Assembly (NCBI GenBank): GCA_035528115.1
Contig: DATKZF010000003.1
Span: 292,651 to 356,650 of the forward strand
Direction of reading: 5' to 3'
DNA from: Candidatus Bipolaricaulota bacterium
GTDB taxonomy: Bacteria > Patescibacteriota > Patescibacteriia > UBA11705 > DATKZF01
Length of the DNA stretch: 64,000 nucleotides
Part shown: positions 1 through 37,370 of the stretch, piece by piece
Numbering within the stretch: the stretch's first letter is position 1
How the letters are laid out: the number at the start of each line of letters is the position of its first letter
Program-made: the position numbers and the translations under genes
The notes under the pieces: generated by a model
What the model was told of the DNA's origin: nothing
Database searches by the model: none
Seen by the model: only the letters and a program-made list of their open reading frames with translations

Positions 1-435
1 TGATTAAAAAAGGAGAGAGCCGTTGCCATTCCGTTAAATGGCGCATCACTTTTACCCTAAATAGTTGAATAGTTGAAGGGTAAGGCCATAAGCTGAGGTC
101 TGCTTAAATGCCGCAAAAGGTGATGAATACTGATCGCCTAAAGCGATTGGGAGATCTCTTTCCTGGAATTCTTTTATCTTTTAGAAGTTTTCAGGGGAAG
201 AGATCCCTCAGTCGCTTTTTTCATGAATATAAAGATAGGGTATCCTCGCCAGCTTTTCCGGAAACAGGAAATTTGGCAAGGGTAATTTACCCTAAAGTGG
301 CATCGCTCGATAAAAAAAGGACGGGTAGTCCGGCCGGTCAACCGGTCATCGAGGATGAGAGTGGGTTCCTGCCTGCCGGCAGGCAGGCGACTCCCACCGG
401 TGCCGCTAAACAACCATGGATGGGAAGGAGGCAAC

Positions 436-654
436 ATGTTTTCCATCCTGATTGTCTTGAGTCTGGTCGTGAGCTTTCACATGCTGAAGTCCTTCGTCAA
501 GGAGGATATCAGCAAATTCCGCAGTCTGTGGGGTATCGTCCCCGCGGACTGCAAAGGGCCGCTCCTGCTCGAGCTCCTCTTCGACCCCACCGCTCTCAGG
601 GAGCGGTTCGAAAGAGAGAGCTCCTTCCAACACAATCTCACCCATTGGAGATAA
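436..654 (+). CDS. Small membrane protein (72 aa) inside GC-rich island 1
   Basis: RBS GGAAGGAGG 5 nt before the ATG; single TM helix FSILIVLSLVVSF. It overlaps the larger 108..728 ORF in another frame, which lacks an RBS and is low-complexity. Confidence 0.45.
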   Translation: MFSILIVLSLVVSFHMLKSFVKEDISKFRSLWGIVPADCKGPLLLELLFDPTALRERFERESSFQHNLTHWR

Positions 655-781
655 ACTCTCCGCTTCAACTGGGAGCACTCTCATCTGCTCCCAAATCCGC
701 TTTAGCCCACAAACTCTTTATTGGCTAAAGCGGGTTCTTTATTCAAAACAATGCCGACCTCGAGTCGGAGGGAGACGGAAA

Positions 782-1963
782 ATGAAGGTCATCGTGTGTG
801 GTCCCCCACACTCGGGGAAGTCGGTGTTCGTGGCAAACCTGAGAAGGTTTCTGCCACGAGAGGGTTCCTTCCTGTTCCGGTGCGCGCCGGACGGTGAGGG
901 AACGTGGAGCAACAAGGCAGATCAGGAGCTCGTCTCCCGGATTCGCCGCAAGGGCAAGTTCGACAGCAAGTTCATGGACTACGTCCTGAACGGTCTGGAG
1001 AACTGCCACATCCCCATCACCTTGGTGGATGTCGGCGGAATCAGGAGCGAGCAGAACGAGGCGATCTTCGCCAAGTGCGACGCCTTCATTGTGCTCTCGT
1101 CGAAGGACGAGGAGCTCAGTGAGTGGCAGCGCTTCGGCGAGGCCCTCGGTCTGAAGTGCCTGGCGCTCCTCCGATCCCGACTGGTCGGAAGTGAGGAGAT
1201 CGAAAACGTGCAGGCGGACGCCCCCATCGCCGGCACGATCTGTGGACTCGAGAGGGGGACGGAGATCGATTCCGAGCTGTTGCGGCAGATCGCCCAGCGG
1301 CTCACCACCATCACGGCGAGCGAGCTCGCCAAGTACGAAGAGGAGAAGGACATGAGCGAGAACACTACCATCACGACGGCCCAGATCGCGGACACCCTCG
1401 GCAAGGGCGTGATCGAGAAGACCCTCCCCAACGGGCGGGTCATCAAGACCATCGACTGGACCGGGGACGACCTCGCCGGGCTCGACGAGCACCTGCGGTC
1501 CCGCGGCTTCGGCCGGGCGGATCACGTCGTGTTCGACGGCCCGATGCCGGCGTGGATGGGCCTGGCGCTGGTGCACGGCGTGCACCCGGCGTTCAGCTCC
1601 CTAAACGATCCGAGGCTCGGCGCGGTCGGGATCGGCATGACCAACCCCGACGGGGAAGGCGCCGGCCCGAACCTGAAATTCTCGGTCGAAGACAAGGGTG
1701 GCTACATGCTGCTCACGTTCGAGATCGAGGGCGTAACGTTCGCCGTCGCCGACCTCGACAAGGTCGTGCCGCCGGCCATCCCCGAGCAGAAGGGTCTGGT
1801 CATCTCCGGCCGCGGACCCAACTGGCTCGCCGTCTCGCTGGCTCTGGCGTACCACGCCAAGGCCAAGTGGGTCGCGATGTTCCAGCCGGGCGTGGGCGCC
1901 ACCGTGGCGATGTCCCACGATCCCGACACCGTTCTCGGCTCGGTGATCCAGATCACCCTTTAA
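782..1963 (+). CDS. P-loop NTPase-domain protein (393 aa), GC-rich foreign-looking gene
   Basis: Walker A motif MKVIVCGPPHSGKS at the N-terminus, with a weak KTI12/PSTK-like kinase resemblance; DVGG switch-like motif; RBS GGAGGGAG 7 nt upstream. About 63% GC versus about 40% for the flanking DNA. Confidence 0.7.
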   Translation: MKVIVCGPPHSGKSVFVANLRRFLPREGSFLFRCAPDGEGTWSNKADQELVSRIRRKGKFDSKFMDYVLNGLENCHIPITLVDVGGIRSEQNEAIFAKCDAFIVLSSKDEELSEWQRFGEALGLKCLALLRSRLVGSEEIENVQADAPIAGTICGLERGTEIDSELLRQIAQRLTTITASELAKYEEEKDMSENTTITTAQIADTLGKGVIEKTLPNGRVIKTIDWTGDDLAGLDEHLRSRGFGRADHVVFDGPMPAWMGLALVHGVHPAFSSLNDPRLGAVGIGMTNPDGEGAGPNLKFSVEDKGGYMLLTFEIEGVTFAVADLDKVVPPAIPEQKGLVISGRGPNWLAVSLALAYHAKAKWVAMFQPGVGATVAMSHDPDTVLGSVIQITL

Positions 1964-2188
1964 TTCTTTTTCCAGCCCCCAGAAAGAAGACAGGGCTGCT
2001 ACAAATAATATGTCTTCTGCGGCACATCACAGCCCGCCGTTCCCTTGCACAGGGAAAAGGGCTGTTAACATAGGGCGAGACTGCACTAGTTTCGCCCCCT
2101 CAAGCAGAGTAAGCTTTACTCACTCCTCCTCTCCGCCTCTGGCGGAGAGAAAAGCTTGCTCTACTTGAGAGAAAAAATTAATACAAAA

Positions 2189-2222
2189 AATCGCCAACTA
2201 ATGTTGGTGATTTTTTGTTTGC
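2189..2222 (+). terminator. Intrinsic terminator downstream of the island-1 gene
   Basis: Stem atcgccaac / gttggtgat followed by TTTTTTGTTTG. Confidence 0.5.
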
Positions 2223-2353
2223 GTTCTACTGTGGAACACCATGAGCGATAATTGTCCCTCGACTTCCTGCCTGCCGGCAGGCGCTCGGGACACTCGACTC
2301 GTCATATGGTGGTACACCACGAGCGAGCCCGAGCAGCGCGAGGGCGAGTCGAG

Positions 2354-2430
2354 TGGTGGACCCGGCAGGGATCGAACCTGTGACCTCCTGTGTGCAAAAC
2401 AGGCGCTCTAGCCAACTGAGCTACGGGCCC
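2354..2430 (-). tRNA. tRNA-Ala (TGC)
   Basis: Cloverleaf with anticodon loop tttgcac and the G3:U70 identity pair; CCA is encoded. Its 3' end faces GC island 1. Confidence 0.9.
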
Positions 2431-2520
2431 GAGAATAGAAAATATTTTTTCGATCATCGACGCTAAAAAATTATACCAAATATATTATTCATCGTCAATC
2501 TCCGGTATTTCCCTGAAATA

Positions 2521-2556
2521 TTTTAAAAATAAAAGCGCCGGATCCGATAGCGCTTT
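2521..2556 (-). terminator. Intrinsic terminator of the helicase gene
   Basis: Hairpin aaagcgcc...ggcgcttt followed by a T-run on the minus strand, immediately after the stop at 2561. Confidence 0.7.
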
Positions 2557-2560
2557 TGAA

Positions 2561-5500
2561 TTACAGAGAATCTATTAAAATGGACTCCAACTCAGCGTCC
2601 AAATCTTCCGGGATATTTTTTTGTTGAGAAAACGATGCCAATTTGACTCGAATTTTCTCCCACGTCGGGTCATCTATTTCCACCTCTTGTTCTTTGGCTA
2701 TTTCTTTTACCCTCGCCGCGCATTGTCTCAAAACGCTCGGCCAATCCTCGTTCTTATTGGAGAGACGGGCGAATTCTTTGCCTGCGGATTCGGCTCGCCT
2801 GACAAGATCAGCGACTTTGCCGCGAGCATATGAGGCGTCATCCGTTTTGGCAAGTTCCGCGGCAAACGCCCCTAATTCTTTTTTCGCCTCTTTTATTCTT
2901 GCTTTTAATTTTGCTATTTTAGAAGCATTGGGATCTTTTTTTCCCGCGTCGGGAATTGAATTGACAATATCCCATAAAAAGCGGGCGTTGCTTAATTCTT
3001 CACCGAATTGATTTCTCAATTCCGATGTCATTTTTTCCCTTTCCTCCGTTTTGGATTTGGGCAAGTGTCTTTCTTCTTTCGGGACGGCTTTTGCCGTTTG
3101 CGCTTCTTTACCGGATATTTTACCCAGCAGTGTCGCGAACACACCCGCGGCAAGCCCTTCCTTGCGCTCCGGCATTTCTTCCTTTATCGATTGAGCCGCT
3201 CGGTATGTAGCGTCATTATCATAAGAAGTTTCAACATCATAAAAAGTTTCAACGCGAGAAATCGCCCTCCAACCGTATGGCGCGCCTGTTTTTTCTTCAA
3301 CCTTAAACACATCGCCGGCGTCTCTGGAAAAAAGATAATCTCCGTCGGTTAATTTCCAGCGTTCACCTTCGCGCCCGCTTCCATAAACAAACACCAGTCG
3401 CGACCCTTTTACCAAAAGCTCGCGTCCGGATCCGCCAATGGCTATTTCGTCCGGCGCGTGCGCTATATCGCTTGTCTGCCCGGGAGAAAAAGCCTCCGCC
3501 ACTCGTCCACCGCGAACGCGTATGATTTTAGCGTAGCCGGAATTACGACCGGATAATATATCAACCAACATTTCTTGTTCGGGAGTAAATTCTTGCTCTT
3601 CCGGCAATTCCGCCTCCAATTCTTGAAACAAAGTCTCGGATTTGTCGGGATCGAGCAAAACCGGCCGGCCGTATGGATCTTCCACCTTTAGAGCGTTAAC
3701 GGCCTCGCTCCATTTATTCCTTAGCGCTGAATATTGTTCATAGGAAAGTCCGAATCGGGCATAGTTATTATAATCGATTCTCTCTATTTTATCGGCAAGC
3801 CCATCCATTATTTTTTGAACTTCCGGAGCTCTTTTCAATCGTCTTTCAATTTCCATCGATCTTTCGGCGATAGCGGCGCGGATCGATTCCAAAATTTGAA
3901 GCGCTTTCTTCGGATCGGCGTCGGGACTCTCAATCACGGATCGCGCCTCGTTATATTGGCGCTCCAGCTCAGAACGCTCGTCATAAGAAAATCCTTTTTC
4001 GCGATATCCGGCAAGCAACTCTTTCATCGTGTCTTGCATAACCGCATATTGCTCTTTCGCCGGAGCCAGAAATTGCTCCCTGTCTATTTTTCTTTGTTTT
4101 CTCGCGTCATCTTGCGTTTTTTGCTCAATGGCTCTCTCGGTGGAATTTGCCGCGGCTTCGTTCGTGCGGAAATATCTCACACCGTATTCATATTTATATT
4201 CACGTTTATCGTAATCATAATTTGGCCCCAGAATATTTATTCCGGGCATAACGAAGACTTCTTCCCCTCGGTGATTTTTTGCGATAACGACCGGTCGCGC
4301 TCCCAGCTCTTCAACGGTTGGCAAGGGGAAAAAATCTTCGACTTTTATTTTCAATGTCTCCGGCGGTCTGAAATTATACCAAGCCTCATCAAGCCGTTTT
4401 TTATCCATTGCTTCTTTAAGCTTTGCAAGCGACTCAACGACAACATTGTATCCTTCCCCCGATTTGTACAATATCGCGGGACGCCCGGTCGCTCCGATTG
4501 ACGGAGCATCTTCTTCGGTCATAGAAAAAACCAAATCAACGGGAATATTCAAGGTAGCCGTAAATTTTTCAACTTTTTCGCTTTCCAACCAGCCGTTAGG
4601 ATTGGCAAGACGATAATCATAAGAAACTCTGACGGCCACGCCCTTAATTTCAACTGTCTCCGGATGCGATGCGTTAATTTCCGATAAAGTTTCAAGCGGA
4701 CAAAAATCTTCGATGTTGATTCTCATTTGCTCATCAATGTGGGCGGCCTCCTTTTTGCTTACGCAACCACCCGCTTTTTCTTTATACCAGTCGCCGATCA
4801 CGGGCAATTTGATCATGCCTCCGGATCGGACATAAAGCGAGTGAAGCAGCTCCATTGCCTCGTTATTGCGTTCAACGCATGGCAAATCCACTTTGCCTTC
4901 AACCAACGCTTTCATGAACACTTCCGCTGCTTTTTCATGATCTTTAACTATCCGCCTCTGTTCAACCAATGGCGAGCTCCGTCCCTTTAAACCGAGACGC
5001 GAGAGTTCAATCACTGAGTCTTGCTCGGGATCGTAGCTGAAAGATTTGTCATATTCCCTTAAAAGTTGCGGCGCTATTTCCGGCAGCCAGGTGGGATCAA
5101 CAGGCTGACAGCTGCGGGCGTATGTTTTCGAAGTCCTCATGACATCAGCGCCAATCATCAATTCCGGTTTCATCGAAAATACGGTTGAAGAAGGATGTAT
5201 ATAAATTCTATCAGATCGCTGCTCAGTTCCTTGAACCACGCGCTCATAAGCGAATTTACCGGAATAGGCCATCAAATGCTGAATCAAGCCCGCGGCAATG
5301 CACTTCTGAATCTCAACGGGATCGTTGCCGTTGGCGTCATCCACCGGCACTCCCCTTTTTCTCAATACGCGCATAAGCTGAGAGCGGATTTCTCTAACCT
5401 CAAACAATTGACGAACATTAAGATAATGATCTATCGCCCAGCCTTCACTGAAACCGGCCGCTGACCATTGACGCCCAATCTCCAGCAATCTTAAAAAATC

Positions 5501-7010: not shown

Positions 7011-7619
7011 TTATAAAAAAAGCGGAACGCTCGAAGCGTCGGCCTGTTTTTGATAAAAGATTCGCTTGCCATATGACCGCGAGAAATAAATTGCGGCAAA
7101 AAGCGGTAATGCCGGAATTTCTCCAATAAGGATAACCTTCTCAGCCGGTAAAAAAGCGTTTGGGAGCAATGGAATAAAATCTTGCGTCCGAGAGACAACC
7201 GCATCACCGGTAGTTTGTTCCCAAAGAGAAATAAGATCTATCTGGCGCGACGACCGCGCGCCAGCCAAGTCTGAAACGTTGGTTCTTTGATCTTTAACCT
7301 TTTTAATCTTATTCCAAACATCGTTGGAAAAAGTCTCAGCGTACGAAACCGGAGACTTTGAATGCAAAAAAAGTCGCATCAAACTATTATCCGGCATTCT
7401 AATCAGCGTTTCATCGGCTATATCGCAAAATATCGCGAAAGTCGCCGCCGACGCTTCAGCCGGCCAGTCGCTTGGCAAGACGGCTATCTCACCTTGAGCT
7501 TGAATCGCGACATGATTTCTAAAATCATGATATCCTTTCTCGTTACTCAAATTAAAATCATCCATTAACCGTATTGAAATGAAATCTCGCGCAATTACAG
7601 GCATCGCTCCGATCGTCAT
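7011..7619 (-). CDS. Hypothetical protein with weak resemblance to HPPK (FolK)
   Basis: Pattern GARSSRQIDLISLW resembles the HPPK motif GPRTLDLDIL. The stop lies 10 bp from the hrpA start, so the two are likely co-transcribed. Confidence 0.3.
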   Translation of the reverse strand: MTIGAMPVIARDFISIRLMDDFNLSNEKGYHDFRNHVAIQAQGEIAVLPSDWPAEASAATFAIFCDIADETLIRMPDNSLMRLFLHSKSPVSYAETFSNDVWNKIKKVKDQRTNVSDLAGARSSRQIDLISLWEQTTGDAVVSRTQDFIPLLPNAFLPAEKVILIGEIPALPLFAAIYFSRSYGKRIFYQKQADASSVPLFL

Positions 7620-8045
7620 AATTAAAAAAGTTAATATATTTCAACTGAGTTAATTATATCATCTGCTCCGCGCAACAACAACATTCAATCGGTCCGGCCA
7701 CGCCTTGCAATAAAATTTCATATTCCGAAATTCAAATTTCAACTTTTAACTTATTTTAAAAAATTTATAAAACATTTGTAACAAATAATAAAACAATAAA
7801 CCAAGGCTAGCTAATCGGAATTTTTAATTCGTAACGTAAAAGTTTTCCACAGTTTAAATAAAAAACATTGTTTGCATTTAAAAAACAGTTTATAATTTAA
7901 ATGTGATTGTTCTTTAAATAAAAAATAAAAATTAAATTATAAAAATTTGATTTTTTCTTCCAAAGACAAACTTGTCTTACAATATATTTCGAAAGTATTG
8001 TAATTCATTTTTGCAAGGAAGGCGAAAGGAGGTGAAAACAAAATT

Positions 8046-8222
8046 ATGCCAGCTAAAAAAAGAAAGAAAGCCGTGAAGAAGGCGGCTCCTAAGAGAAAGA
8101 AAGCAGTGAAGAAGACCGCGAAGAAAAAAGCGGCTCCTAAGAGAAAAAAAGCCGTAAAGAAGACCACTAAGAAAAAAGCGGCTCCTAAGAGAAAAAAAGC
8201 CAGTCGCAGAAAGAAAAAGTAG
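8046..8222 (+). CDS. Small basic Lys/Ala-rich repeat protein (58 aa), histone H1/Hc1-like DNA-binding candidate
   Basis: RBS AAAGGAGGTGA; AAPKRKKAVKKT repeated three times. It is absent from the ORF track because it is under 60 aa. The 7937..8239 minus-strand ORF is its antisense artifact. Confidence 0.6.
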   Translation: MPAKKRKKAVKKAAPKRKKAVKKTAKKKAAPKRKKAVKKTTKKKAAPKRKKASRRKKK

Positions 8223-8229
8223 TATAAAA

Positions 8230-8272
8230 ACAGCCCCATTTTCCTCGCGAAATATCAGGGCTGTTTTATTTT
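8230..8272 (+). terminator. Intrinsic terminator
   Basis: Stem acagccc...gggctgt followed by TTTTATTTT. Confidence 0.7.
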
Positions 8273-10979: not shown

Positions 10980-11098
<119 letters not shown>

Positions 11099-11160
11099 TA
11101 CCTCTTTAAAATTGTTGCTTTAAAATAAACTTTCTCATTTAAGTGGTTATGCATTTGACT

Positions 11161-14156
<2,996 letters not shown>

Positions 14157-14534
14157 GCATAACCACTAAAATGAGAAAATTTGTACTGTTATATTGATTC
14201 TCCATAGTATGTTGATATACTCGACGAATAAATTGAAAATTTATTTGTCATTTTTTAATTGTCAATGATCATGAGACAACTTAATCGGAAATAAAAAAGG
14301 CATTCGCAGCTCTGAAATCGTTATCTTGTTCGAGCAAACGACTACCTGTGGATAATTTAAATTGTCTGTGAAACATTATACATTAAATAAACGAACCATG
14401 TCAAGCAGCAAACCTTTTGCTTCAAAACATTGACATTTTCGCTAAATTACGGTATAATTATTCAGTTACAAGATTAAAGTTTCTAGTTGAAAGTATGGGG
14501 TGATTTTTAATCCTACTGAACTTTAATCTAACAA

Positions 14535-14620
14535 GCTGGGGTGGTGAAATTGGTATACACGCTTGCCTTAGGAGCAGGTGGGCATTGCCCGTGGAGGTTC
14601 GAGTCCTCTCCCCAGCACCA
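14535..14620 (+). tRNA. tRNA-Leu (TAG), class II
   Basis: Anticodon loop cttagga; long variable arm; CCA encoded. Confidence 0.85.
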
Positions 14621-14734
14621 TTCGACTCGGCTTTGCTGCGGCAAAGCCTCGCTCATGGTGTTCCACCACCTGCACAAGCGGGGCGAGGCGAATGCCCTGA
14701 GTGAGGAGCGGTAGTGACGAATCGAAGGGCATTC
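14621..14734 (+). repeat. Conserved tRNA 3'-trailer element (class 1)
   Basis: TTCGACTCG...CTCGCTCATGGTGTTCCACCACCTG...GAGGCGAATGCCCTGAG. Near-identical copies follow tRNA-Phe, tRNA-Gly(CCC) and tRNA-Ala. Confidence 0.7.
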
Positions 14735-15119
14735 TTAAAACCGGCATCTTGGCCGATTTTTTTATTTTTAAAAATTTTAATGAATTTTAAAAGCGGCCTG
14801 CGTTGCAGTCCGCTTGGTGGTTGACTTGAGAAGACGAGGTTCAGCTCACGAGGAAGCCCGAGGCAGAACCCCACTGCCGTCTGGCAAGCGCGCCCAGTAC
14901 GTCGTCTCCGACAACTTTCGTCGTCATGACAACTCTCCTTGCGCTCGCGCTGAAAAACCGGTCAGCGCTTCCGGCCCCGCCTCGACTTGAGAACAGGGAG
15001 ATTCGGAAAAAATTTGTCCGAATGTCTTTATTCTCAATTCAAGATAGTATGTTATACAACAACAGAAATGTCAATGATAAAATCTCTTATTATAACCGAA
15101 GTCAAAGGCATATTTTACA

Positions 15120-15148
15120 TTGACAGTACCTCCCTCATAAGTTAAAAT
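15120..15148 (+). promoter_or_regulatory. Sigma70-type promoter (TTGACA-17-TAAAAT) for the island-2 gene
   Basis: Exact -35 hexamer, 17-bp spacer, near-consensus -10, 33 bp upstream of the ATG. Confidence 0.6.
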
Positions 15149-15181: not shown

Positions 15182-15808
15182 ATGAGCGGGAACACAACGC
15201 CCGAAACTGGCGCGGATCAATCAACCCGCGATGAGGAGACGTGGCACAGCCGCGTCTTTCATCAGTGGGTCGGCCAGGCAAACGGCCGGCTGGTTGGATA
15301 TCCGGCCGCGTTCATCAGCGAAGTGATCGGAGACAATCCCTGTTTCTCAGATGCCGCGGCCACCGGATCAAGCGTGGCCAATGCCTGCATGGCCGCCATG
15401 TCAGTCGATTACTCGGACGAGCTCGGGCGCGGCGGAGCGCTCTGGCTGAGGCGACAGCCGGCAAGGATTTGGAAGCAGCTTCTAGGATTTTCAGAACATC
15501 ACCGCCAAGGAGTCGACGAAACATTCCTGGCCATGGTGATGTGGCTGTTTGACCCGGAAAGCGACCGAGCTCATGACAACGCCTTCGAATGGCTATGGGA
15601 TATACATCCTTACTTTTCCTGCGGTATGCACATGACCGGCAGACTCAGCTCCGACTTCGACAACCAGATTGAGGAGACAGCTCAATCCTGGCCGGCAGAT
15701 ACCAGGCGATGGACGCGCTGGGCGACCGAGAAATACCCGCTCGCGTTCCAAAATCTCGGAGGTTTTATCAAGCGCGGCGACTTAATAAGCGCGCCGATCC
15801 AAGAGTAG
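15182..15808 (+). CDS. Hypothetical protein (208 aa), GC-rich island 2
   Basis: RBS GGGAGGG 7 nt upstream; about 62% GC; no recognizable domain. Confidence 0.6.
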   Translation: MSGNTTPETGADQSTRDEETWHSRVFHQWVGQANGRLVGYPAAFISEVIGDNPCFSDAAATGSSVANACMAAMSVDYSDELGRGGALWLRRQPARIWKQLLGFSEHHRQGVDETFLAMVMWLFDPESDRAHDNAFEWLWDIHPYFSCGMHMTGRLSSDFDNQIEETAQSWPADTRRWTRWATEKYPLAFQNLGGFIKRGDLISAPIQE

Positions 15809-22067: not shown

Positions 22068-23735
22068 CTAGTAGTTGCAGAAGTACCCGCCGTCGACCGT
22101 GTCAAACACCGCGTTGATGTTGGGGTACGTGGGCAAAACACACATGACTGCGTGTTCCCCTGGCGAAACGCAAGTCATGAATGGGGTCATCCCGGAAACC
22201 TCGTCCGGAGTGCCCGGATCGATGTACGCCGTAGGCGGGGGAGCCGACGTATTGCTGGTGATGCTCACCCATACCTTACCGGTCAGCGTCTCGCTGATCG
22301 GATCGCTTGACTGGACGTCGAACAACAGCGCTTTGTAATCCACGCAACTCGAATAAAACTCAAACACGTGGATTCCTGGACCAATCGCGATCTGGCAGTT
22401 GCCCGGCAATGTGGAGTTGCAGACCACGGTTCCGTCCAACCGCAGGGTAGACGACGGCTGGGAGGTGATCGGTACGGTCAGGTCTTCTGTGGCCGCGGCG
22501 AACGTCACGTCGAACGTGTTGTTCGTCGCATCGATGAACTCATCGAGAACGACCGGGACGAATCCCCAACTGTTCACGATGACCTCATGCTGTCCTTCCG
22601 GCACCTCCATGGAACATGGCGTGCGGCAGACAGCCGGCTCGTTGTCGATTGACACGACCGCGTCCGTGGGGGTGCTCGTCACCGTCAGGAGAACGGGCAG
22701 CATGGCCTCGAGCATGGCGTCCACGACGTAGTCGTTGTCCAAAAATGACTCAACCGTCTCGTCGTAGTACCCGTCGAGATTGAACACGTACGTATGAGCG
22801 CACGCGGTCTGCTCAACGGCCAGGCATGGAGTCGCTTCGCAAACAACTTCGCCGCCTTCAGTGACGGTCGCGCCGATCGGCTCGGACGTGAAATCGCCAA
22901 CCACGGTCAGCGGCACGAGTGTCACGTTGAACGCGAAGCTCGTTTCCGAGACCATGATCAAGATATCCTCCGAGACGAAGCACCCGGTCAAGTCAATGAT
23001 GTGCACGGTGTGCTGCCCCTCGGTCAGAGAGATCTCTGCCGGCGTATAGTTCGTGACCGTGTCATCATCTACTCGGAAATAGACTCCGATCGGCTCGGAC
23101 GTGATAGTCACGACCACCACGATCGGCGCAATGTCCGGCTGAACATCGACAGGAACCACGTCCACGGCCATGTCAACCGGCACATCCGGCTGCACGTCAG
23201 CCGGCACGTCCTCGGCCACGTCGATTAGCACGTCCGGCTGCACGTCGACCGGCGCGTCCTCGATCACGTCGGGCGTCACCTCCGGCTGAACTTCGGCCAA
23301 CGCGTCCTCGATCAGATCGACCGGAACGTCCGGCTGAACATCGACCGGAACATCTTCCACCAACTCCGGCGGAACGTCCGGCTGAACTTCGACCGGAATG
23401 TCCTCGACCACCTCGAGCGGCACATCCTCCGCCACTTCTACCGGAATGTCCTCGACCAGCTCGGCCGGCACATCCCGCGCGACGTCGAGCGGATGGAGAT
23501 CTCGCATGGGCCTGCTGTCAGCCTCTGCGTCTTCTTCCATGTCCGGAACGGTGGCGTCCTCCTTGATGTCCGGCAAGCGCGGGATGTCGGTGATGACCTC
23601 GAGGAAGTCCCCTCCGAAATCATGAGCCATTGCATCTTCCGTTTCGACCAGGCTCGGGCCGACCGTGGCCTCACTACCGCAAGCGGCGAAGAAAAGGCCG
23701 ACAAAAACAAAAAGAACAAATTGTCTCGGACTCAT
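22068..23735 (-). CDS. Secreted acidic-repeat lipoprotein with about five PEGA-like domains, GC-rich island 3
   Basis: RBS AGGAGGA-7-ATG; signal peptide plus lipobox-like FAACGS; about 120 aa of (E/D)DVPV(D/E)VQPDVP tandem repeats; repeated ITSEP..G..V..DG...G.TP..EGQH blocks. About 62% GC. Confidence 0.7.
   Translation of the reverse strand: MSPRQFVLFVFVGLFFAACGSEATVGPSLVETEDAMAHDFGGDFLEVITDIPRLPDIKEDATVPDMEEDAEADSRPMRDLHPLDVARDVPAELVEDIPVEVAEDVPLEVVEDIPVEVQPDVPPELVEDVPVDVQPDVPVDLIEDALAEVQPEVTPDVIEDAPVDVQPDVLIDVAEDVPADVQPDVPVDMAVDVVPVDVQPDIAPIVVVVTITSEPIGVYFRVDDDTVTNYTPAEISLTEGQHTVHIIDLTGCFVSEDILIMVSETSFAFNVTLVPLTVVGDFTSEPIGATVTEGGEVVCEATPCLAVEQTACAHTYVFNLDGYYDETVESFLDNDYVVDAMLEAMLPVLLTVTSTPTDAVVSIDNEPAVCRTPCSMEVPEGQHEVIVNSWGFVPVVLDEFIDATNNTFDVTFAAATEDLTVPITSQPSSTLRLDGTVVCNSTLPGNCQIAIGPGIHVFEFYSSCVDYKALLFDVQSSDPISETLTGKVWVSITSNTSAPPPTAYIDPGTPDEVSGMTPFMTCVSPGEHAVMCVLPTYPNINAVFDTVDGGYFCNY
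23093..23480. repeat. Tandem ~24-bp coding repeats (acidic DVPVDVQP array)
   Basis: cgtccggctgaacttcgaccggaa-like units iterated about 15 times. Confidence 0.75.
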
Positions 23736-24053
23736 GCTGTCATCCTCCTGTTGTTGCGCATGATTGATATATCGATATGTCAAACTGCTGACTTATTATA
23801 CTAGAACAAAATCGTATTCTTGTCAATTCCCCAAATTATTTCAAAAGCTCTGCCATTTTACAATATGTATGACTGATTGGAAAGTAAAAGTATTACAAAA
23901 AAATGTCCCGATCAAGGACACTTTTTCTACCGATTCATGCCATTCTTCGCTTCGCGAAGAATGGGGGCACGGACCCACCTTCGTCAAGACTACGGCAAGC
24001 AGGCGGGATTTGCACCCATGCATAGCGGTTTTGTCCCGATAAATAAATAAATT

Positions 24054-24128
24054 TGGAGGCACGGATGGGAATTGCACCCATGCGTTGCGGTTTTGCAGAC
24101 CGCTGCCTTACTGCTTGGCTACCGTGCC
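24054..24128 (-). tRNA. tRNA-Cys (GCA)
   Basis: Anticodon loop ctgcaaa, discriminator U, CCA encoded. Flanked by a 17-bp inverted repeat gataaataaataaattt, with partial self-duplicates at 24005..24037 and 24193..24232. Confidence 0.85.
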
Positions 24129-24300
24129 AACAAATTTATTTATTTATCGAGGATCCTCGAAAATTATAAAAATAAAGGATTTTTAATTTTCGGGACAGAC
24201 CGCTGCCTTACTAATTGGCTACCGTGCCTTAAAAAGATTAAAAATAAAAAAATATTGAATATCTATTTAATCTTATCATGCAAAAAGCAGGCTGTAAACA

Positions 24301-26076: not shown

Positions 26077-26451
26077 TTACTCATTCAAAAAATCGTAAAA
26101 GAGCGAAGACGCATGGGAAATCAACCGCAGAATCTCCGTGAAATGCTTGCGCCTGAGTCTGGCGGACGCGCCCGCCACCATGCAATTTCTCCTCTTTAGA
26201 GCGGCCAGATCCGCCAAGGCGGCTCTCAAGGGCTCATTCTGCCTAATAATTTCTTTTATCAACATGTACACGGCGTCCGCGCCCGGGTAACGACGCAGGA
26301 AATTCTTCTTTCTTGTTCTGCGCGCCAGCTCGAGCGTTGCGCACAACTCAAAGACGCGATGCGCATCGCACATGCCACGGTTGTACAGCTGAAGGACGAA
26401 CAACTTCACCATCACCCTATTGAAAGTATCCAGCGTCGGTCGTCTGGTCAT
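26077..26451 (-). CDS. Hypothetical cytoplasmic protein (125 aa), GC-rich island 4
   Basis: Very strong RBS AGGAGGAGGAG immediately before ATG MTRRP; upstream promoter TTGACA-17-TATTTT. Confidence 0.5.
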   Translation of the reverse strand: MTRRPTLDTFNRVMVKLFVLQLYNRGMCDAHRVFELCATLELARRTRKKNFLRRYPGADAVYMLIKEIIRQNEPLRAALADLAALKRRNCMVAGASARLRRKHFTEILRLISHASSLFYDFLNE

Positions 26452-26579
26452 CTCCTCCTCCTTTAATAAATAAAAAATATCAATTCCGCGCCGCGCTGTC
26501 AAACGCGGCTTATTGGCTGATTGACAAAAAAGCGATTTTATGAGACGGTATACCAGGCCAAGCAACAAGGAGGATCGCC

Positions 26580-27353
26580 ATGAAACGGTCAATTTGTCTG
26601 GCTCTGTGTCTGTCTCTGTCGGTTTTGGCAAGCTGCGGAGCCAATGCTCCAAACACTTGCCCTGATCAAATCGTCTGGAACGTGCCGTATTCCTTGTGCG
26701 GCCAAAGCTGCGCCAAGTCCGAGACTGCGTGGGCAGGCGTCAACAAGAACATCTGCACAATGATGGAGGCAAGGATCTCACATGCCCCTGTCGTGAGCGG
26801 GCCATACCTGTTTCAGCTTTCGATGTCTTCGGCCTACGGAGCTTTGAGTCTTACTACCGCGCAAGAAGTCAGCGACTTGTTCCACATCTTCTACCCGCTG
26901 ACACAGCCGACGCACCAGCCGGGCGAGGTCGCGGGAGACTTGGTGTCAAACGAACAGCCATACCTCGTTCTGATTAACGGCGGCAACGTCAAAGAAATCA
27001 TTCAGTTGCGTGCGCTCGACGTTCCTTGGATGAACAAAGGCCGGGACTTTATTCCCACGGACAGGGACGCACTGCTTCTGGAAATCATGTCCAAAATGCA
27101 CGTCAACAATGACGGCGCATACACGTTGATACCTGTCAACATCAATTGTCCAATCTCGGAGTGCTATACCATCGATCTTGCTCCGGAGACCGTTGAAGGG
27201 TTTTTCCACATGGGTAAGACTCCTCGCAGAATATGGACTGTACAATATCAACAAAAGGAATTGACCGGCATCATCGAGATGGTCTTCCTCGATAACAACA
27301 GTTGCCGCAAACCTGAGACACCCGAGCCATTAGCCCCTGTCTTCGACCTCTGA
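26580..27353 (+). CDS. Lipoprotein (257 aa), GC-rich island 4
   Basis: RBS AAGGAGGA; signal peptide with lipobox LASCG; about 55% GC. Confidence 0.6.
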   Translation: MKRSICLALCLSLSVLASCGANAPNTCPDQIVWNVPYSLCGQSCAKSETAWAGVNKNICTMMEARISHAPVVSGPYLFQLSMSSAYGALSLTTAQEVSDLFHIFYPLTQPTHQPGEVAGDLVSNEQPYLVLINGGNVKEIIQLRALDVPWMNKGRDFIPTDRDALLLEIMSKMHVNNDGAYTLIPVNINCPISECYTIDLAPETVEGFFHMGKTPRRIWTVQYQQKELTGIIEMVFLDNNSCRKPETPEPLAPVFDL

Positions 27354-28361: not shown

Positions 28362-28391
28362 GAGAAGGAAAAACCCTTCTCATTTTAATTT
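28362..28391. terminator. Bidirectional intrinsic terminator
   Basis: gagaagg-aaaaa-ccttctc followed by ATTTTAATTT. Confidence 0.55.
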
Positions 28392-29063
28392 CAAAAATAA
28401 GTACTTTAATAATTTGTCAATATTAGCGTCTCGATAAAGCTCAATAGAATTTTTATAAATTTTTTCATGTTCCGGATAAGGCTTTTGCTTTCCGATGTTA
28501 AACTTTTCTTTGCATTTACTGGAATTCATTATATGTATATTTATAATCTCAGAAACCGCCCATAATATATTCTCGTTCTTCTTGCCAGTAAACGCTGGGA
28601 ACCTTGCAAAAACATAATCATAAAAAATAAAATGAAGCATTTCATGAATAATTGTTTCAATTATACCGACCCTTTTATAATATGCCTGAAATATCTTATT
28701 CTTTATATCCCGTGGATTGCAATTCCAGATAGATAAATAGCACTTGTATACCCCCTTTGGGAAGGGGTGGCAATTAAAATACTCTTCGGCGAAACAAAAA
28801 AATTCATCACTTTTTCTATCCCACGCCTTCTCAGATGCAACTTTCGCTTTCAATATATCTTTTAAATGCGTTTTATAATATGAGGCCGTGTATGACTTTA
28901 GTACACATGGACTTATTCTTCCTTTCTTTTTCAATTCAGGATGCGAATTCAAAATACCTTTTTCAAAAAAAGAAAAACCTCCAAATTTAATTTTTCTAAA
29001 TTGGCAAGCTATTTTATAATCCAACTTTTCATCTAGACGAAACAGTAATTTAGGATGGTTCAT
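28380..29063 (-). CDS. HExxH-motif protein (putative metallopeptidase)
   Basis: IIHEMLHFIF motif. Confidence 0.5.
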   Translation of the reverse strand: MNHPKLLFRLDEKLDYKIACQFRKIKFGGFSFFEKGILNSHPELKKKGRISPCVLKSYTASYYKTHLKDILKAKVASEKAWDRKSDEFFCFAEEYFNCHPFPKGVYKCYLSIWNCNPRDIKNKIFQAYYKRVGIIETIIHEMLHFIFYDYVFARFPAFTGKKNENILWAVSEIINIHIMNSSKCKEKFNIGKQKPYPEHEKIYKNSIELYRDANIDKLLKYLFLKLK

Positions 29064-30644: not shown

Positions 30645-30744
30645 CTTTACCACATTGATCTTTACAATAGAAAATTGATAGAAAGAAGTCCATTGTTTAC
30701 TTTTTTTCAGAGTTTTGACCAACTCTTTTCAAAATGGTCAAATT

Positions 30745-32231
<1,487 letters not shown>

Positions 32232-32541: not shown

Positions 32542-32631
32542 GCCTTCGCTAAAGCTTCGGCTGGCAGGCCAACTTTTAGAAATCGGTCCGATTCATCGGG
32601 ACTCCAAAATTTTTCACTTTTAACTTTTTAC

Positions 32632-32708: not shown

Positions 32709-32774
32709 GCCTTCGCTAAAGCTTCGGCTGGCAGGCCATAAGATGCTTGCCCGACAAAGCCTTGGCGAAGTCGG

Positions 32775-32849
32775 GCCAGGTTAGCTCAGTGGTAGAGCGA
32801 AGGACTGAAAATCCTTGCGTCCCCAGTTCAATTCTGGGACCTGGCACCA
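32775..32849 (+). tRNA. tRNA-Phe (GAA)
   Basis: Anticodon loop ctgaaaa. Confidence 0.85.
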
Positions 32850-32960
32850 TTCGACTCGCCCTCGGTGCCACTCGGGCTCGCTCATGGTGTGCCACCACCT
32901 GAATGTACGAAGTGAGGCGAGTGCCCTGAGTTTATGGAAGGGTTTTTTTATTTTTGTTTG
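32850..32960 (+). repeat. tRNA 3'-trailer element (class 1) copy
   Basis: TTCGACTCG...CTCGCTCATGGTGTGCCACCACCTG...GAGGCGAGTGCCCTGAG followed by a terminator-like hairpin and T-run. Confidence 0.7.
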
Positions 32961-33025: not shown

Positions 33026-33102
33026 CGGGGTGTGGCGCAGTTGGCTAGCGCGCTTGCTTTGGGAGCATGAGGCCGTGGGTTCGAGTCCCACCACCCCGAC
33101 CA
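33026..33102 (+). tRNA. tRNA-Pro (TGG)
   Basis: Anticodon loop tttggga with one mismatch in the anticodon stem; acceptor CGGGGTG. Confidence 0.75.
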
Positions 33103-33162
33103 GCCTTCGCTCCTCCTCGCTCCGCTCGTCGGGGCTTCGGCTGGCGGGCCAGCCAAAAAAAT

Positions 33163-33420
33163 ATGCAAAACCATTTAAAATATTTTGTTTATATAGCACA
33201 AAGTTTAATTAAAGATGATGAATTTTATAAGGGATATTCAGTTGATATTGACGAAAGATTGATTAAGCATAATTTAGGATTATCCAAGCATACTGCAAAA
33301 TATAAACCATGGAAAATTATATTTTATTGCGCTCTTAGCAATAGAGAAAAAGCTATCGCTTTTGAGAAATATCTTAAATCCGGATCAGGAAGGGCTTTTG
33401 CCAAAAAAAGATTCATATAA
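33163..33420 (+). CDS. GIY-YIG nuclease superfamily protein (UPF0213/YhbQ-like, 85 aa)
   Basis: YFVYIAQSL...GYSVDIDERL...KYL.SGSG pattern. Confidence 0.6.
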   Translation: MQNHLKYFVYIAQSLIKDDEFYKGYSVDIDERLIKHNLGLSKHTAKYKPWKIIFYCALSNREKAIAFEKYLKSGSGRAFAKKRFI

Positions 33421-33636: not shown

Positions 33637-33645
33637 ATAAAAAAA

Positions 33646-33682
33646 TCCCAACGATGTGTTGGAGTTTTTTTATTTAGGAATC
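33646..33682 (+). terminator. Intrinsic terminator
   Basis: tccaac-gatgt-gttgga followed by GTTTTTTTATTT. Confidence 0.65.
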
Positions 33683-33826
33683 GAACCCATACCAAGAGCA
33701 AAACAGATTCCCGCTGCCCTGAGCGAGAGAGGCTTTACCGAACGAGTCGAAGGGTTACCCGCTCCAATAAAAGAACTTCAACATTGCGTTGAAGCTTTTT
33801 TATATCAGTAAAATAATCTCAAAAAT

Positions 33827-34591: not shown

Positions 34592-34678
34592 ATGCTCTCA
34601 GCATAGCAAAATATCAAGGCGCAATCAAGCGCTCAACGCTTGTTTTAAGCCTCAGGAATTGCTAAAATAATAATGCTC

Positions 34679-34753
34679 GCGGGCGTCGTATAGTGGTTAT
34701 TACATCGGCTTCCCAAGCCGAGAACGGCGGTTCGATTCCGCTCGCCCGCTCCA
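34679..34753 (+). tRNA. tRNA-Gly (CCC)
   Basis: Anticodon loop ttcccaa. Confidence 0.85.
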
Positions 34754-34850
34754 CTCGACTCGGTCTTCGCAAGCTCAGACCTCGCTCGTGGTCTTCGACC
34801 ATTATTGACCGAGGCGAGTGCCCCGAGCATGCCGAGGGGCATTCTCAAAT
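34754..34850 (+). repeat. tRNA 3'-trailer element (class 1) copy
   Basis: CTCGACTCG...CTCGCTCGTGG...CCGAGGCGAGTGCCCCGAG followed by a GC hairpin. Confidence 0.7.
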
Positions 34851-34862
34851 TATAAAACCTAC

Positions 34863-36386
34863 ATGAGCGAAAAAATAAAAAATCTAATTTTAAAAAACAA
34901 AGCGTTAATTTGTCTTTTTTTAATTTACGCGATTTCCACGATATTCTTCGCTTCCCATTACCTGGCCAATTGGGACGCCGGGCAATTCGCTTTGGGAACG
35001 CAAAACTTCAATCTCGAAAATCATCAGCCTCATCCGCCCGGCTATTTTTTATTTATTTTTTGCGCCAAGGGTCTTAATTATTTCATTTCAAATATCAATG
35101 CTTGCTTTTTGGTCATCAATTTTCTGGCCGGATTTTTCGCCTTGATTTTCCTTCATAAATTGACACTGGAAATTTCCAAAAATGAAAAAACATCTTTTAT
35201 AATCGCTCTGCTTTTTATTTTCAATCCTGTTTTCTGGTACTATCGCGATATTGCCAATACCTACGTCTTTGAATCATTGGCCATATTATCGACGGCTTTT
35301 TTCGCTTATGAGTCGATTGTCGGAGAAAAAAACAGATTTGCTTTGTCCGTTGGCATTATTGCCATTTTAATGGGCTTTCGGCCGTCGATTATTTTGGCAG
35401 CCGCGCCCATACTTTTTATCCACTGGATTTTCAGCAAAGATAAAATCAAGAATATTTTTTTGGGCGCGGCTGCCTTTCTAATCATTTTTTCCGCCTGGTT
35501 TATTCCTTTCGCGAAAACAGTCGGTTGGCACAATCTGTCCGCTTTAATCAAAGGACAACTTACGTCAGCTCATGAATCATTTTCTCAAAAATCGCAACTG
35601 ATGTTTTTAATTAAAAGTTTAATTTTTTCCGTGAGCGCTTCTCTTTTAGTCGCGTTCTTTTTCATCAAGAAAAATTTGAATTTCCTCAAAGAAAAAAAAC
35701 TTTTTTATTTTCTGATTTCGCCCGCTTTTTTAATCTTTTTTTACGCGCTCGTTCATTTCGGCGAGGTCGGCTATCTTCTCGGCATAATTTCACTTTTTTC
35801 TTTGTTGATCATCTACCCCGTATCCAAGCTCCTAAACAAATCATGGGGTCTGATTTTATTGATCGCCGTTTTAATCGGACAAATTTGCTGTTTTATTTAC
35901 CCGCAAAAATATTTTCAAAATGAAAAAATCGAAAAAATAAATTATGTCTCGATTCGCGCTCGTGACACTCTTTTGAACAATTATATTTCTTTCATCAAAA
36001 CGCTTGATCCCAAAGAATCCTTGATCCTGATTTTGCGCGGGCAATATTTCAACGCGGAAAATAAAGTCGATAAATACGAAAACGAGGACATTCGAGCTCT
36101 CGGCTATTATCTGCCCGAATACAAGCTTTACGACTTTTCCGGCGTGACGAGCGAATATTCGATTTTGGAAAATTTTGACACTGCCAAATATTTCAGCAAT
36201 GACATTGAAATAAACTCAGGAATTAAAAACTTTTATGTTCTCGCAAATTACGTCAATCCGATCGACTACACGGATGAATTCACGTTATCAGAGCAAAACA
36301 TGCCTGATTCGGCTCTGAATTATTACTTGGGAAACATTGAAAACATTGATGAATTTGAATTTAAGGGATTCTTTTTTACAAAATAA
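34863..36386 (+). CDS. Polytopic membrane protein, GT-C-fold glycosyltransferase-like (PMT/ArnT-like)
   Basis: At least 12 predicted TM helices; family commonly expanded in CPR genomes. Confidence 0.5.
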   Translation: MSEKIKNLILKNKALICLFLIYAISTIFFASHYLANWDAGQFALGTQNFNLENHQPHPPGYFLFIFCAKGLNYFISNINACFLVINFLAGFFALIFLHKLTLEISKNEKTSFIIALLFIFNPVFWYYRDIANTYVFESLAILSTAFFAYESIVGEKNRFALSVGIIAILMGFRPSIILAAAPILFIHWIFSKDKIKNIFLGAAAFLIIFSAWFIPFAKTVGWHNLSALIKGQLTSAHESFSQKSQLMFLIKSLIFSVSASLLVAFFFIKKNLNFLKEKKLFYFLISPAFLIFFYALVHFGEVGYLLGIISLFSLLIIYPVSKLLNKSWGLILLIAVLIGQICCFIYPQKYFQNEKIEKINYVSIRARDTLLNNYISFIKTLDPKESLILILRGQYFNAENKVDKYENEDIRALGYYLPEYKLYDFSGVTSEYSILENFDTAKYFSNDIEINSGIKNFYVLANYVNPIDYTDEFTLSEQNMPDSALNYYLGNIENIDEFEFKGFFFTK

Positions 36387-36457
36387 TATTAAACCCGAAA
36401 AACAGCCGTCAAAAGCGGCTTTTTTGTTTAATTTAAGACAAATTTTAACAGAAAACC

Positions 36458-36486
36458 TTTACAAAATATTAGAATTGTGATATAAT
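36458..36486 (+). promoter_or_regulatory. Promoter TTTACA-17-TATAAT for the island-5 gene
   Basis: Follows the terminator of the preceding gene. Confidence 0.6.
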
Positions 36487-36542
36487 TTTTTGATTGTCCG
36501 AAAAGACTATCAATCGCAACACTGCAACCCTGGAGGAGATCG

Positions 36543-37259
36543 ATGGGAATAAAACGCTTTGTGGCGACGAGTGAGCTCCCTGAGCTCGCGCTCGGGGGAT
36601 GCGGACTCGTGCTCAAGGATCCCGAAGAACTGCCGGCAGAACTCGAGCCGGCCTTGACCTCGACCAAGTTCCTCGGGGTCAACGCCTATAGTAATGGCTC
36701 CCGCCTGCCCTGTCGGTTCCTCAAAGTCGTCAACGAAGGAGCCGGGGACTCCTTCTGGTACAAACTGCCGCAGGGGCTCGAGGAAAACTTCGACTCGTTC
36801 GAGGTCTCCTTGCGCGTGTCCTGCGCGGAGGAGGACCCGGACACCGGCGCCGGGGTTGAGATCCTGTTCGGCAGAGAAAGCGAGAGTCAGTGCTTTCTCT
36901 TCATGAACACCAGGGACCGCTCGTCGTTCCTGCGGTTCGGCAAGCTCCGCATCGCGCGGGGCGTCGAGTTTCCGACACTGTTCATTCGGTGCCGGCGACT
37001 CGTCGGCGGCCAGGTCGTCTTCAAGTACTTCGCGCTCAACGCCGAAGTGAAAGAAGCGGCCGGCCGGCTCGTCGTCTCGTTCGAGCCGATCAGCCTGGCC
37101 GAACTGCCCGAGTCGCTCCGGACCAAGACGTTCTGGACGCCGCGGCCCGAGCACCTCGAGCGCATGCGCGAGGACCTGGCTCTGCGCGAGGAGCAGAGCG
37201 AGTGCTTCCTGCTGCCGCACAAAGTGCGCGTGCAGCTCGTTCACACCCCGGCCGAGTAG
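36543..37259 (+). CDS. Hypothetical protein (238 aa), GC-rich island 5
   Basis: RBS GGAGGAG; about 63% GC; no recognizable domain. Confidence 0.6.
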   Translation: MGIKRFVATSELPELALGGCGLVLKDPEELPAELEPALTSTKFLGVNAYSNGSRLPCRFLKVVNEGAGDSFWYKLPQGLEENFDSFEVSLRVSCAEEDPDTGAGVEILFGRESESQCFLFMNTRDRSSFLRFGKLRIARGVEFPTLFIRCRRLVGGQVVFKYFALNAEVKEAAGRLVVSFEPISLAELPESLRTKTFWTPRPEHLERMREDLALREEQSECFLLPHKVRVQLVHTPAE

Positions 37260-37274
37260 AGGCAGAGGATTCTT

Positions 37275-37316
37275 GGCGGCGGAAAGATCGAGATCTTTCC
37301 GCCGCCTTTTGATTTT
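37275..37316 (+). terminator. Intrinsic terminator of the island-5 gene
   Basis: ggcggcggaaagatcgagatctttccgccgcc followed by TTTTGATTTT. Confidence 0.75.
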
Positions 37317-37370
37317 AAAAGCATGGAAAAAAAATCCATGCTTATTTATATCAAATTAAATTCAGGCTTG

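Follow-up and report, generated by a model that had tools for sequence, protein, structure and literature searches.

Compositional islets produced by horizontal gene transfer are a textbook phenomenon, and the framework for reading their amelioration is reportedly owed to Lawrence and Ochman. Published surveys of Patescibacteria list both genes transferred one by one and islands; transfers into these bacteria come mostly from other Patescibacteria, which are AT-rich, and the donors have often gone unrecovered (PMC12455944). Here, we describe five patches of DNA rich in guanine plus cytosine (GC) in a 64,000-nt stretch (hereafter the window) of a metagenome-assembled genome (MAG) which is a small genome of the Patescibacteria, or Candidate Phyla Radiation (CPR), with ~43% GC. 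The patches lie at positions 436-2222 (patch 1), 15182-15808 (patch 2), 22068-23735 (patch 3), 26077-27353 (patch 4) and 36543-37259 (patch 5). We consider it likely that they are separate horizontal acquisitions from high-GC donors, on account of their composition at all codon positions, the insertion of patch 4 between khpA and trmD, the mobility of the Csx3 gene carried by patch 1, and the substitutions on the branch of the Csx3 family that leads to the window.

As with horizontally transferred genes and islets described elsewhere, the patches differ from their flanks in GC, in GC at third codon positions (GC3), and in codon and amino-acid usage; they occupy intergenic sites near tRNA genes, encode accessory functions (defence, cell surface), and in the case of patch 4 are absent from the same junction in relatives. 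They differ from such islets in their unusually small size (0.7-1.9 kb, with one gene or two) and in being trimmed tight to the coding unit, with no integrase or other mobility gene and no donor found, and in pointing to GC-rich donors, whereas the donors surveyed in Patescibacteria are mostly AT-rich Patescibacteria (PMC12455944). The patches are a clean, extreme example of the known class of horizontal-transfer islets, and no new kind of element.

Two other kinds of element were compared with the patches and rejected. Integron gene cassettes resemble them in being compact, with a single open reading frame (ORF), little flanking DNA and a palindromic element behind the ORF; the patches, in contrast, are dispersed rather than arrayed and have promoter-like sites of their own. 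Their downstream hairpins carry T runs and are not attC sites with R and L boxes, and no integrase was found. The likeness to tRNA-targeting integrative islands lies in the position of patches 1-3 near the 3' sides of tRNA genes and in partial copies of tRNA-Cys, but the region is merely tRNA-dense (9 tRNA genes in 35 kb), and this class was set aside because there is no integrase and no tRNA-derived direct repeat at the far end of any patch.

Composition of the patches

The seven ORFs of the patches were compared with the 44 background ORFs of the window. Background ORFs have a GC content of 0.432±0.043 (range 0.306-0.510) and a GC3 of 0.494±0.076 (maximum 0.640), while patch ORFs reach a GC content of 0.52-0.65 and a GC3 of 0.64-0.89, equivalent to GC3 z-scores of 2.0 to 5.1. 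Leave-one-out codon log-likelihood ratios separate the two sets without overlap, with 44/44 background ORFs between -0.58 and -0.15 bits per codon and 7/7 patch ORFs between -0.075 and +0.476 bits per codon, which places every patch gene outside the codon-usage distribution of the host genes. The elevation is not confined to GC3 and extends to the first and second codon positions (GC1 and GC2). At the protein level, the share of arginine among arginine plus lysine residues, R/(R+K), is 0.47-0.82 in patch proteins versus 0.32±0.11 in the background, and the combined fraction of F, Y, M, I, N and K residues (FYMINK) is 0.17-0.27 versus 0.33. Because amino-acid usage is also of the GC type, the bias is old and not merely synonymous; a combined amino-acid and codon bias of this kind takes long evolution in a GC-rich genome.

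An earlier note on this DNA, made from its letters, had described the patches as sharply bounded GC-rich cassettes whose composition switches close to the gene ends. GC, GC3, the codon log-likelihood ratio and bin-wise GC all bear this out, the shift lying at most one 60-nt bin from the ends of the coding sequence (CDS) or terminator. The figure of 55-65% GC given there for all cassettes needs correction for patch 4, which at ~52% GC is the weakest case. The note had furthermore assigned each cassette its own promoter and intrinsic terminator. Promoter-like sites matching at least 10 of 12 positions are found upstream of patches 2, 3, 4 (minus-strand ORF) and 5, but none at this threshold for patch 1 or for the plus-strand gene of patch 4; clear terminators of the hairpin-plus-T type follow patches 1, 4 (minus-strand ORF) and 5.

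Some GC-rich DNA in the window is not cassette DNA. The segments 2230-2350 (partly) and 14615-14745 belong to a structured repeat behind tRNA genes (see below), and 14790-15000 is GC-rich without codon periodicity. At permissive thresholds, Rfam recognized no known RNA in any GC-rich non-coding segment. Larger inserts may have left behind the GC-rich non-coding DNA at 300-435, 1964-2222 and 14790-15000.

The AAA-Csx3 gene and its relatives

The gene which can be followed furthest is that of patch 1 at 782-1963. Its 393-aa product, which the earlier note had recognized as a P-loop protein, is more exactly a full-length AAA-Csx3 fusion. It shares the N-terminal P-loop and C-terminal Csx3 arrangement of the PADLOC 'AAA-Csx3' family (C3a67) over nearly the entire profile (5.6e-55, residues 3-392, profile positions 7-380 of 382), and its C-terminal domain matches the Csx3 models of the Crn3/Csx3 ring nucleases (Pfam Cas_csx3, PF09620, 1.7e-19; TIGR02579, 76.8 bits against a cutoff of 55.4) as well as PDB chains of AfCsx3 (2e-12). 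The role of the AAA domain in AAA-Csx3 is not established (PMC12409355). In stand-alone Csx3, by comparison, H57 is described as invariant, and the D69A variant of AfCsx3 is inactive (PMC7371418). The window protein retains S44-G45-R46, H60 and H80 of AfCsx3 and differs from that enzyme at H57, D69 and R71, where it has L, Q and G. This is a property of the fusion family, which generally keeps H60, H80 and the SGR motif: among 119 AAA-Csx3 homologues, the D69 position is Q in 102, the R71 position G in 100, and the H57 position M or L in 95.

A further difference from Crn3/Csx3 ring nucleases lies in the surroundings. There is no CRISPR array in the window or the 19 kb beyond, and no cas domain was detected among the scanned window ORFs or in those 19 kb (Pfam hits precomputed for contigs L170 and L171). 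We treat the product as a putative P-loop protein binding cyclic tetra-adenylate (cA4) and not as an established ring nuclease; it may be a sensor of cA4 that leaves the molecule intact. As an automatic label for this subgroup, 'ring nuclease' may go too far, since the family is without the aspartate that is essential in the characterized enzyme.

Homologues of this protein with E ≤1e-5 number 879, and the nearest, 69-77% identical, are all on metagenomic contigs; orthologues at 72-77% identity are present in other lineages. At the DNA level, homology to the closest relatives (76-81% of nucleotides) starts at the start codon and stops just before the stop codon, and their flanks are unrelated to those in the window. 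The compositional setting of the gene varies widely. In the lineage of contigs L005 and L174 (90% mutual identity) it is again a GC islet confined to the CDS, with a GC3 of 0.90 and flanks of 0.41-0.50; L003/L004 have it at the margin of a 9-kb block with 60-63% GC; a 54% identical homologue in L087/L088 sits within a context of 57-66% GC; and in L172/L173 the gene is ameliorated, with a GC3 of just 0.60. As judged from these contigs, the Csx3 gene is mobile between unrelated contexts.

Third-position changes were polarized by parsimony, which is rough on long branches and gives supporting evidence rather than proof. The window branch has 19 G<->C changes, 11 GC>AT and no AT>GC, while the branch leading to L172 has 24 G<->C, 72 GC>AT and 4 AT>GC. 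As the changes on the window branch are mostly G<->C with little drift toward AT, the divergence of the window gene accrued mostly under a GC-rich regime, and by this pattern its acquisition looks recent relative to divergence within the family. The L172 copy illustrates the effect of a long stay in a genome of lower GC, a course on which the window copy has hardly set out. The decay seen in L172 in turn implies that no intrinsic force maintains GC in the Csx3 family.

Several observations were made on these relatives. A 167-kb contig, L086 (JGI 3300012009, Ga0153773_1000012), carries a 55% identical AAA-Csx3 gene in a region which is again GC-richer than its surroundings; the contig looks like a large phage, with many small ORFs without family matches, a thymidylate kinase, a thymidine kinase and an NAD-dependent ligase. 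Scans of viral contigs with the Csx3 protein and with the 238-aa and 208-aa proteins of patches 5 and 2 found no relatives. Contigs L172 (2221-3974) and L003 (7820-8335) have in common a neighbouring protein of ~172 aa (59% identity). The DEAH helicase near Csx3 in both L172 and the window looks coincidental, as the two are 36-40% identical and differently arranged.

Origin of the patches

The earlier note had offered three explanations for the patches, namely repeated acquisition from a high-GC donor such as an actinobacterial host, chimeric metagenome assembly, and engineered insertion. The last two are rejected. An artefact of assembly or binning, by which pieces of a co-occurring high-GC organism were joined into a CPR contig, might be suspected of any metagenome-assembled record, all the more when its NCBI label is at odds with its content. 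However, 7-8 contigs drawn from ENA, Logan, JGI and NCBI carry the Csx3 gene between the same neighbours, isoleucyl-tRNA synthetase (IleRS) and the helicase; among them are a Logan contig of 12 kb that was seen in three samples and an ENA contig of 438 kb. The independent assemblies are base-identical across the junctions: the ENA contig equals the window without mismatch over 11,963 and 10,702 bases, and the Logan contig over 5,963 bases, which take in patch 1 with its two borders. For each of the other patch proteins, three long contigs are on record, and every patch is a complete gene unit, ribosome-binding site and terminator included, in an intergenic gap, interrupting no host gene. We therefore regard an artefact as extremely improbable. 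Deliberate insertion of expression cassettes has in its favour the neat layout of promoter, ribosome-binding site (RBS), CDS and terminator, but its probability is vanishingly small: the organism is uncultivated and its sequence was recovered from several environmental datasets, most patch genes have no known function, neither vector nor marker nor scar sequences turned up, and the Csx3 gene, the sole one traced, is part of a family that has diverged in nature, with members in many environmental samples and relatives of 69-77% identity in other metagenomes.

Patch 4 is absent from its locus in relatives. In the 29 relatives compared, trmD directly follows khpA, with a median gap of ~164 nt from the alignment end and a gap of at most 250 nt in 24/29, while in the window the gap is 1428 nt and holds the patch. 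The 20-kb neighbourhoods of trmD in relatives are compositionally uniform (29-47% GC) and contain no homologue of any patch gene. These relatives are distant, with TrmD proteins at most 65% identical, and they do not preserve the gene order around patches 1, 2, 3 and 5. Between patches 1, 2 and 3 and the 3' sides of tRNA-Ala, tRNA-Leu and tRNA-Cys, respectively, there are 130-560 nt. Target-site duplications and inverted repeats were sought at the patch borders, and none above chance was found except at patch 1, whose borders carry a direct repeat of 19 nt, against a longest shared word of 11 nt in shuffled flanks.

Under separate acquisition, the patch genes would have evolved for long in genomes of roughly 60-65% GC and then entered the lineage horizontally, perhaps by DNA uptake, or with a mobile element or virus. 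Illegitimate recombination may have placed them in intergenic DNA beside tRNA, rRNA and housekeeping genes. The deletion bias of a streamlined genome could then have trimmed the donor DNA that was not under selection, leaving an RBS, a CDS and a terminator under AT-rich local promoters; the composition would seem to switch at the gene ends because donor flanks were trimmed. The genes kept would fall into two groups, the putative cyclic-oligoadenylate-binding AAA-Csx3, linked to defence or counter-defence, and surface lipoproteins and small proteins that plausibly act in the envelope of the cell or where it meets a host. Different donors or different residence times would account for the range of GC3, 0.89 to 0.64.

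Several points weigh against separate acquisition. A donor was found for no patch. The comparison of the same loci in relatives, which the earlier note had proposed, shows absence for patch 4 only. Neither the scanned ORFs of the window nor the Pfam hits precomputed for L170 and L171 include an integrase or transposase domain, and no integrase, transposase or conjugation gene lies beside any patch in the window and the 19 kb beyond. A flanking repeat above chance (19 nt) is present at patch 1 only. The orphan status of the 208-aa, 257-aa and 124-aa proteins comes from profile libraries alone. Finally, all five patches fall inside 37 kb, with none in the ~46 kb adjoining (27 kb of window and 19 kb beyond), and this clustering weighs against fully independent random insertion, which does not predict it.

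The clustering agrees with the main rival, a single acquisition in which a large GC-rich island or an integrated element came into this region, rich in tRNA and rRNA genes, and was broken by later rearrangements and deletions into five remnants. The GC-rich non-coding remnants at 14790-15000 and 300-435, the location of three patches within a few hundred bases of tRNA genes, and the partial self-copies that flank tRNA-Cys also agree with it. We rate it lower and consider it quite unlikely, because GC3 varies widely among the patches (0.64 to 0.89) and conserved operons separate them: the 23S-5S rRNA genes, polA-holA, rpsP-khpA-trmD, and the 16S rRNA gene with its tRNA cluster all stand in between. 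Patch 4 lies exactly inside the khpA-trmD junction, a position hard to obtain by fragmentation, and no mobility gene is left. Less probable still, and very unlikely, is that the genes are native and that their GC has been raised or kept by selection on mRNA structure or expression, or by biased gene conversion. Their promoters and terminators look host-like, and the closest Csx3 orthologues, found in two lineages, have a GC3 of 0.89-0.90 despite 23-27% protein divergence and AT-richer flanks. Yet the bias reaches codon positions 1 and 2 and amino-acid usage, Csx3 orthologues occur in unrelated genomic contexts, the L172 orthologue is decaying in GC, and relatives are without a gene between khpA and trmD.

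Separate acquisition from high-GC donors, the first of the explanations in the earlier note, is supported in its general form by composition, the khpA-trmD insertion, Csx3 mobility and the substitution pattern. An actinobacterial host as donor receives no support: the nearest Csx3 relatives are on metagenomic contigs, and relatives of the PEGA-domain protein of patch 3 are at most 35% identical. Homology searches for a donor clade, which the note had suggested, gave none for that protein or for the 238-aa protein of patch 5. The Csx3 homologues in GC-rich settings (54% in a contig of 57-66% GC, 73% beside GC-rich genes) name no donor taxon. A more specific idea, which we hold to be doubtful, is that a CPR episymbiont has taken up genes one by one, on repeated occasions, from the high-GC organism that is its host, and keeps those acting at the interface; here these could be the two surface lipoproteins, the beta-sandwich protein, and a cA4-binding AAA-Csx3 modulating cyclic-oligoadenylate signalling. 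If this were true, islet composition together with phylogeny would be a direct sequence marker for the host of an uncultivated CPR lineage. More generally, were donors identified among organisms of the same samples, the islets might point to a physical partner, a standing problem for CPR bacteria. As a case of genes gained recently by a streamlined CPR genome, the patches are unusually clean and well bounded, and the large contrast between host and donor (GC3 0.49 versus up to 0.89) allows time since acquisition to be reasoned about.

Genes and signals of the patches

Coordinates of the patch features and of the elements behind tRNA genes are collected in Table 1. In patch 1, the Csx3 gene is preceded by a 72-aa ORF with coding-type GC by codon position (0.51/0.34/0.77) and a codon log-likelihood ratio of +0.40; its product has no Pfam, PHROG, PADLOC or NCBIfam match, and its exact sequence is absent from the protein collection. 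The automatically called ORF 108-728 is probably spurious, since it is the 436-654 frame that has coding-type periodicity and an RBS. At the 3' end of the patch, the terminator scan reports 2207-2194 on the minus strand, and Rfam returned only hairpin-type chance matches for the hairpins there.

The 208-aa protein of patch 2 has the highest arginine share, R/(R+K) = 0.82, and no match in Pfam, PHROG, PADLOC or NCBIfam; its AlphaFold model is unusable, with a predicted local distance difference test (pLDDT) score of 37.5. Patch 3 encodes the acidic-repeat PEGA lipoprotein of the earlier note, which is confirmed by a signal peptide, a lipobox, an acidic tandem repeat and, in common with other PEGA-domain surface proteins, a match to Pfam PF08308 (1.6e-16; cutoff 20.8 bits). 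The repeats, with an acidic 16-residue unit, occupy 23157-23487 of the gene, and its promoter-like site is at 23826-23798; an alternative TTG start at 23783 would give 571 aa. Its 518 relatives are distant and contain PEGA-type stretches in repeated form; the best non-self match is 35% identical.

Patch 4 encodes a second lipoprotein, the 257-aa product of 26580-27353. The divergent 124-aa ORF of this patch, whose longest version extends to 26652 from a TTG start, has a promoter-like site at 26502-26474, a terminator at 26066-26045, and no match in Pfam, PHROG, PADLOC or NCBIfam. In patch 5 several frames are open at 36543-37259, but only the plus frame shows the order GC3>GC1>GC2 (0.84/0.65/0.42). 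The 238-aa product had no homologue in a search of 5.8 billion proteins; it is modelled as a beta-sandwich, a low-confidence prediction with merely generic structural neighbours. PHROG profiles likewise gave no relatives of the Csx3, 238-aa and 208-aa proteins.

Table 1. Positions of the patch genes, their signals, and the elements following tRNA genes in the window
Feature	Position	Strand	GC	GC3	Basis or remark
19-nt direct repeat TTCCTGCCTGCCGGCAGGC, palindrome inside, bounding patch 1 (366-2282)	366-384 and 2264-2282	+			repeat search
72-aa ORF, hydrophobic N-terminus, GGAAGGAGG upstream	436-654	+	0.539	0.767	RBS, codon periodicity
393-aa AAA(P-loop)-Csx3 fusion protein	782-1963	+	0.646	0.886	profile matches, Walker A GPPHSGKS in sequence
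Long imperfect hairpin (~2096-2170), then terminator-like hairpin with T run (2186-2217)	2096-2217				read from sequence
Promoter-like site TTGACA-17-TAAAAT, upstream of patch 2	15120-15148	+			11/12 positions match
208-aa protein (HUT22433)	15182-15808	+	0.581	0.670	no family match
555-aa lipoprotein: signal peptide, lipobox, acidic 48-nt tandem repeats, C-terminal PEGA-type domains	22068-23735 (GC and GC3 for ORF 22068-23783)	-	0.591	0.748	Pfam
124-aa Arg-rich ORF, divergent from 257-aa lipoprotein gene	26077-26451	-	0.525	0.680	GC3
257-aa lipoprotein, signal peptide ending LASCG (lipobox), between khpA and trmD	26580-27353	+	0.523	0.643	no family match
Promoter-like site TTTACA-17-TATAAT, extended -10 TG, upstream of patch 5	36458-36486	+			11/12 positions match
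238-aa protein, predicted beta-sandwich	36543-37259	+	0.637	0.841	only + frame coding-type
Intrinsic terminator of patch 5: 14-bp GC-rich hairpin then TTTTGATTTT	37275-37306	+			terminator scan
tRNA-trailer element, four copies	2225-2356, 14618-14745, 32847-32950, 34751-34860	-, +, +, +
Second trailer type, three copies	32542-32580, 32709-32750, 33103-33160

Source genome and other features of the window

The window has a GC content of 0.449 (44.9%) over its 64,000 nt and carries ten tRNA genes and unlinked rRNA genes, with 23S-5S at 10985-14164 (minus strand) and 16S at 30744-32229 (plus strand). Its background genes are of the housekeeping kind (IleRS, DEAH helicase, RmuC, S20, holA, polA, S16-KhpA-TrmD) together with a ZIP transporter, SMC, PBP1, RuvC and YebC. 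By exact sequence, the window proteins are HUT22426-HUT22453 of an NCBI third-party-annotated MAG labelled 'Candidatus Bipolaricaulota bacterium', and they occur on contigs of 604-763 kb from NCBI, ENA, JGI and Logan. The closest TrmD proteins, 62-65% identical, are mostly from MAGs of Patescibacteria, Paceibacterota or Parcubacteria, with a few records under other, apparently misassigned names; gene content typical of Patescibacteria includes tandem T4SS-pilin paralogues, DUF2079 and scattered rRNA genes. The public label is probably wrong, as TrmD relatives, gene content and rRNA layout all point to the Patescibacteria. Related MAGs named 'uncultured Gammaproteobacteria' or 'Pseudomonadales' include several that also look mislabelled.

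The tRNA genes of the window are accompanied by two types of trailer. A GC-rich element of ~100 nt follows directly after the CCA end of tRNA-Ala, tRNA-Leu, tRNA-Phe and tRNA-Gly(ccc), with the core TCGACTCG-[variable hairpin]-CTCGCTCATGGTGTnCCACCA ... GAGGCGAGTGCCC. The RNAalifold prediction for its four copies has 24 pairs, of which 8 show compensatory changes, and the predicted fold resembles a multi-stem, tRNA-like trailer; Rfam gave no match for the element. The second type, GCCTTCGCT...GCTTCGGCTGGCAGGCCA, stands right after the CCA end of tRNA-Val, tRNA-Ile and tRNA-Pro. In the stretch 23940-24235, the tRNA-Cys gene (24054-24128, minus strand) is embedded in a 28-nt inverted repeat and is surrounded by partial copies of itself, with a 5' half at ~24193-24229, a 3' half at ~24008-24039, and a further ...TCCGTGCCCCCA remnant. 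These copies look like what is left of an older tRNA-Cys copy that was disrupted, or of former integrations next to patch 3.

The window also contains AT-rich outliers: a 227-aa ORF at 28380-29063 (minus strand; GC 0.31, GC3 0.30), a GIY-YIG endonuclease-like ORF at 33067-33420 (plus strand; GC3 0.30) directly after tRNA-Pro, a 294-aa ORF at 61393-62277 (minus strand; GC3 0.32), and an intergenic stretch of 25% GC at 7600-8000. With AT-rich outliers beside GC-rich patches, the genome is a mosaic in both directions. Six tandem paralogues with a T4SS_pilin (PF18895) or TrbC domain occupy 55156-58332 (minus strand), according to precomputed hits on the same genes in L171, and two of these paralogues have the highest GC3 among background genes (0.63-0.64). 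A Lys/Ala/Pro-rich ORF of 100 aa at 7937-8239 (minus strand), made of 48-nt tandem repeats (AAPKRKKAVKK-like) and without a Pfam match, resembles histone H1-like or nucleoid-associated proteins. The heptamer TTTCATG is repeated 14 times in perfect tandem at 62404-62501, just upstream of tRNA-Ser (62507-62596).

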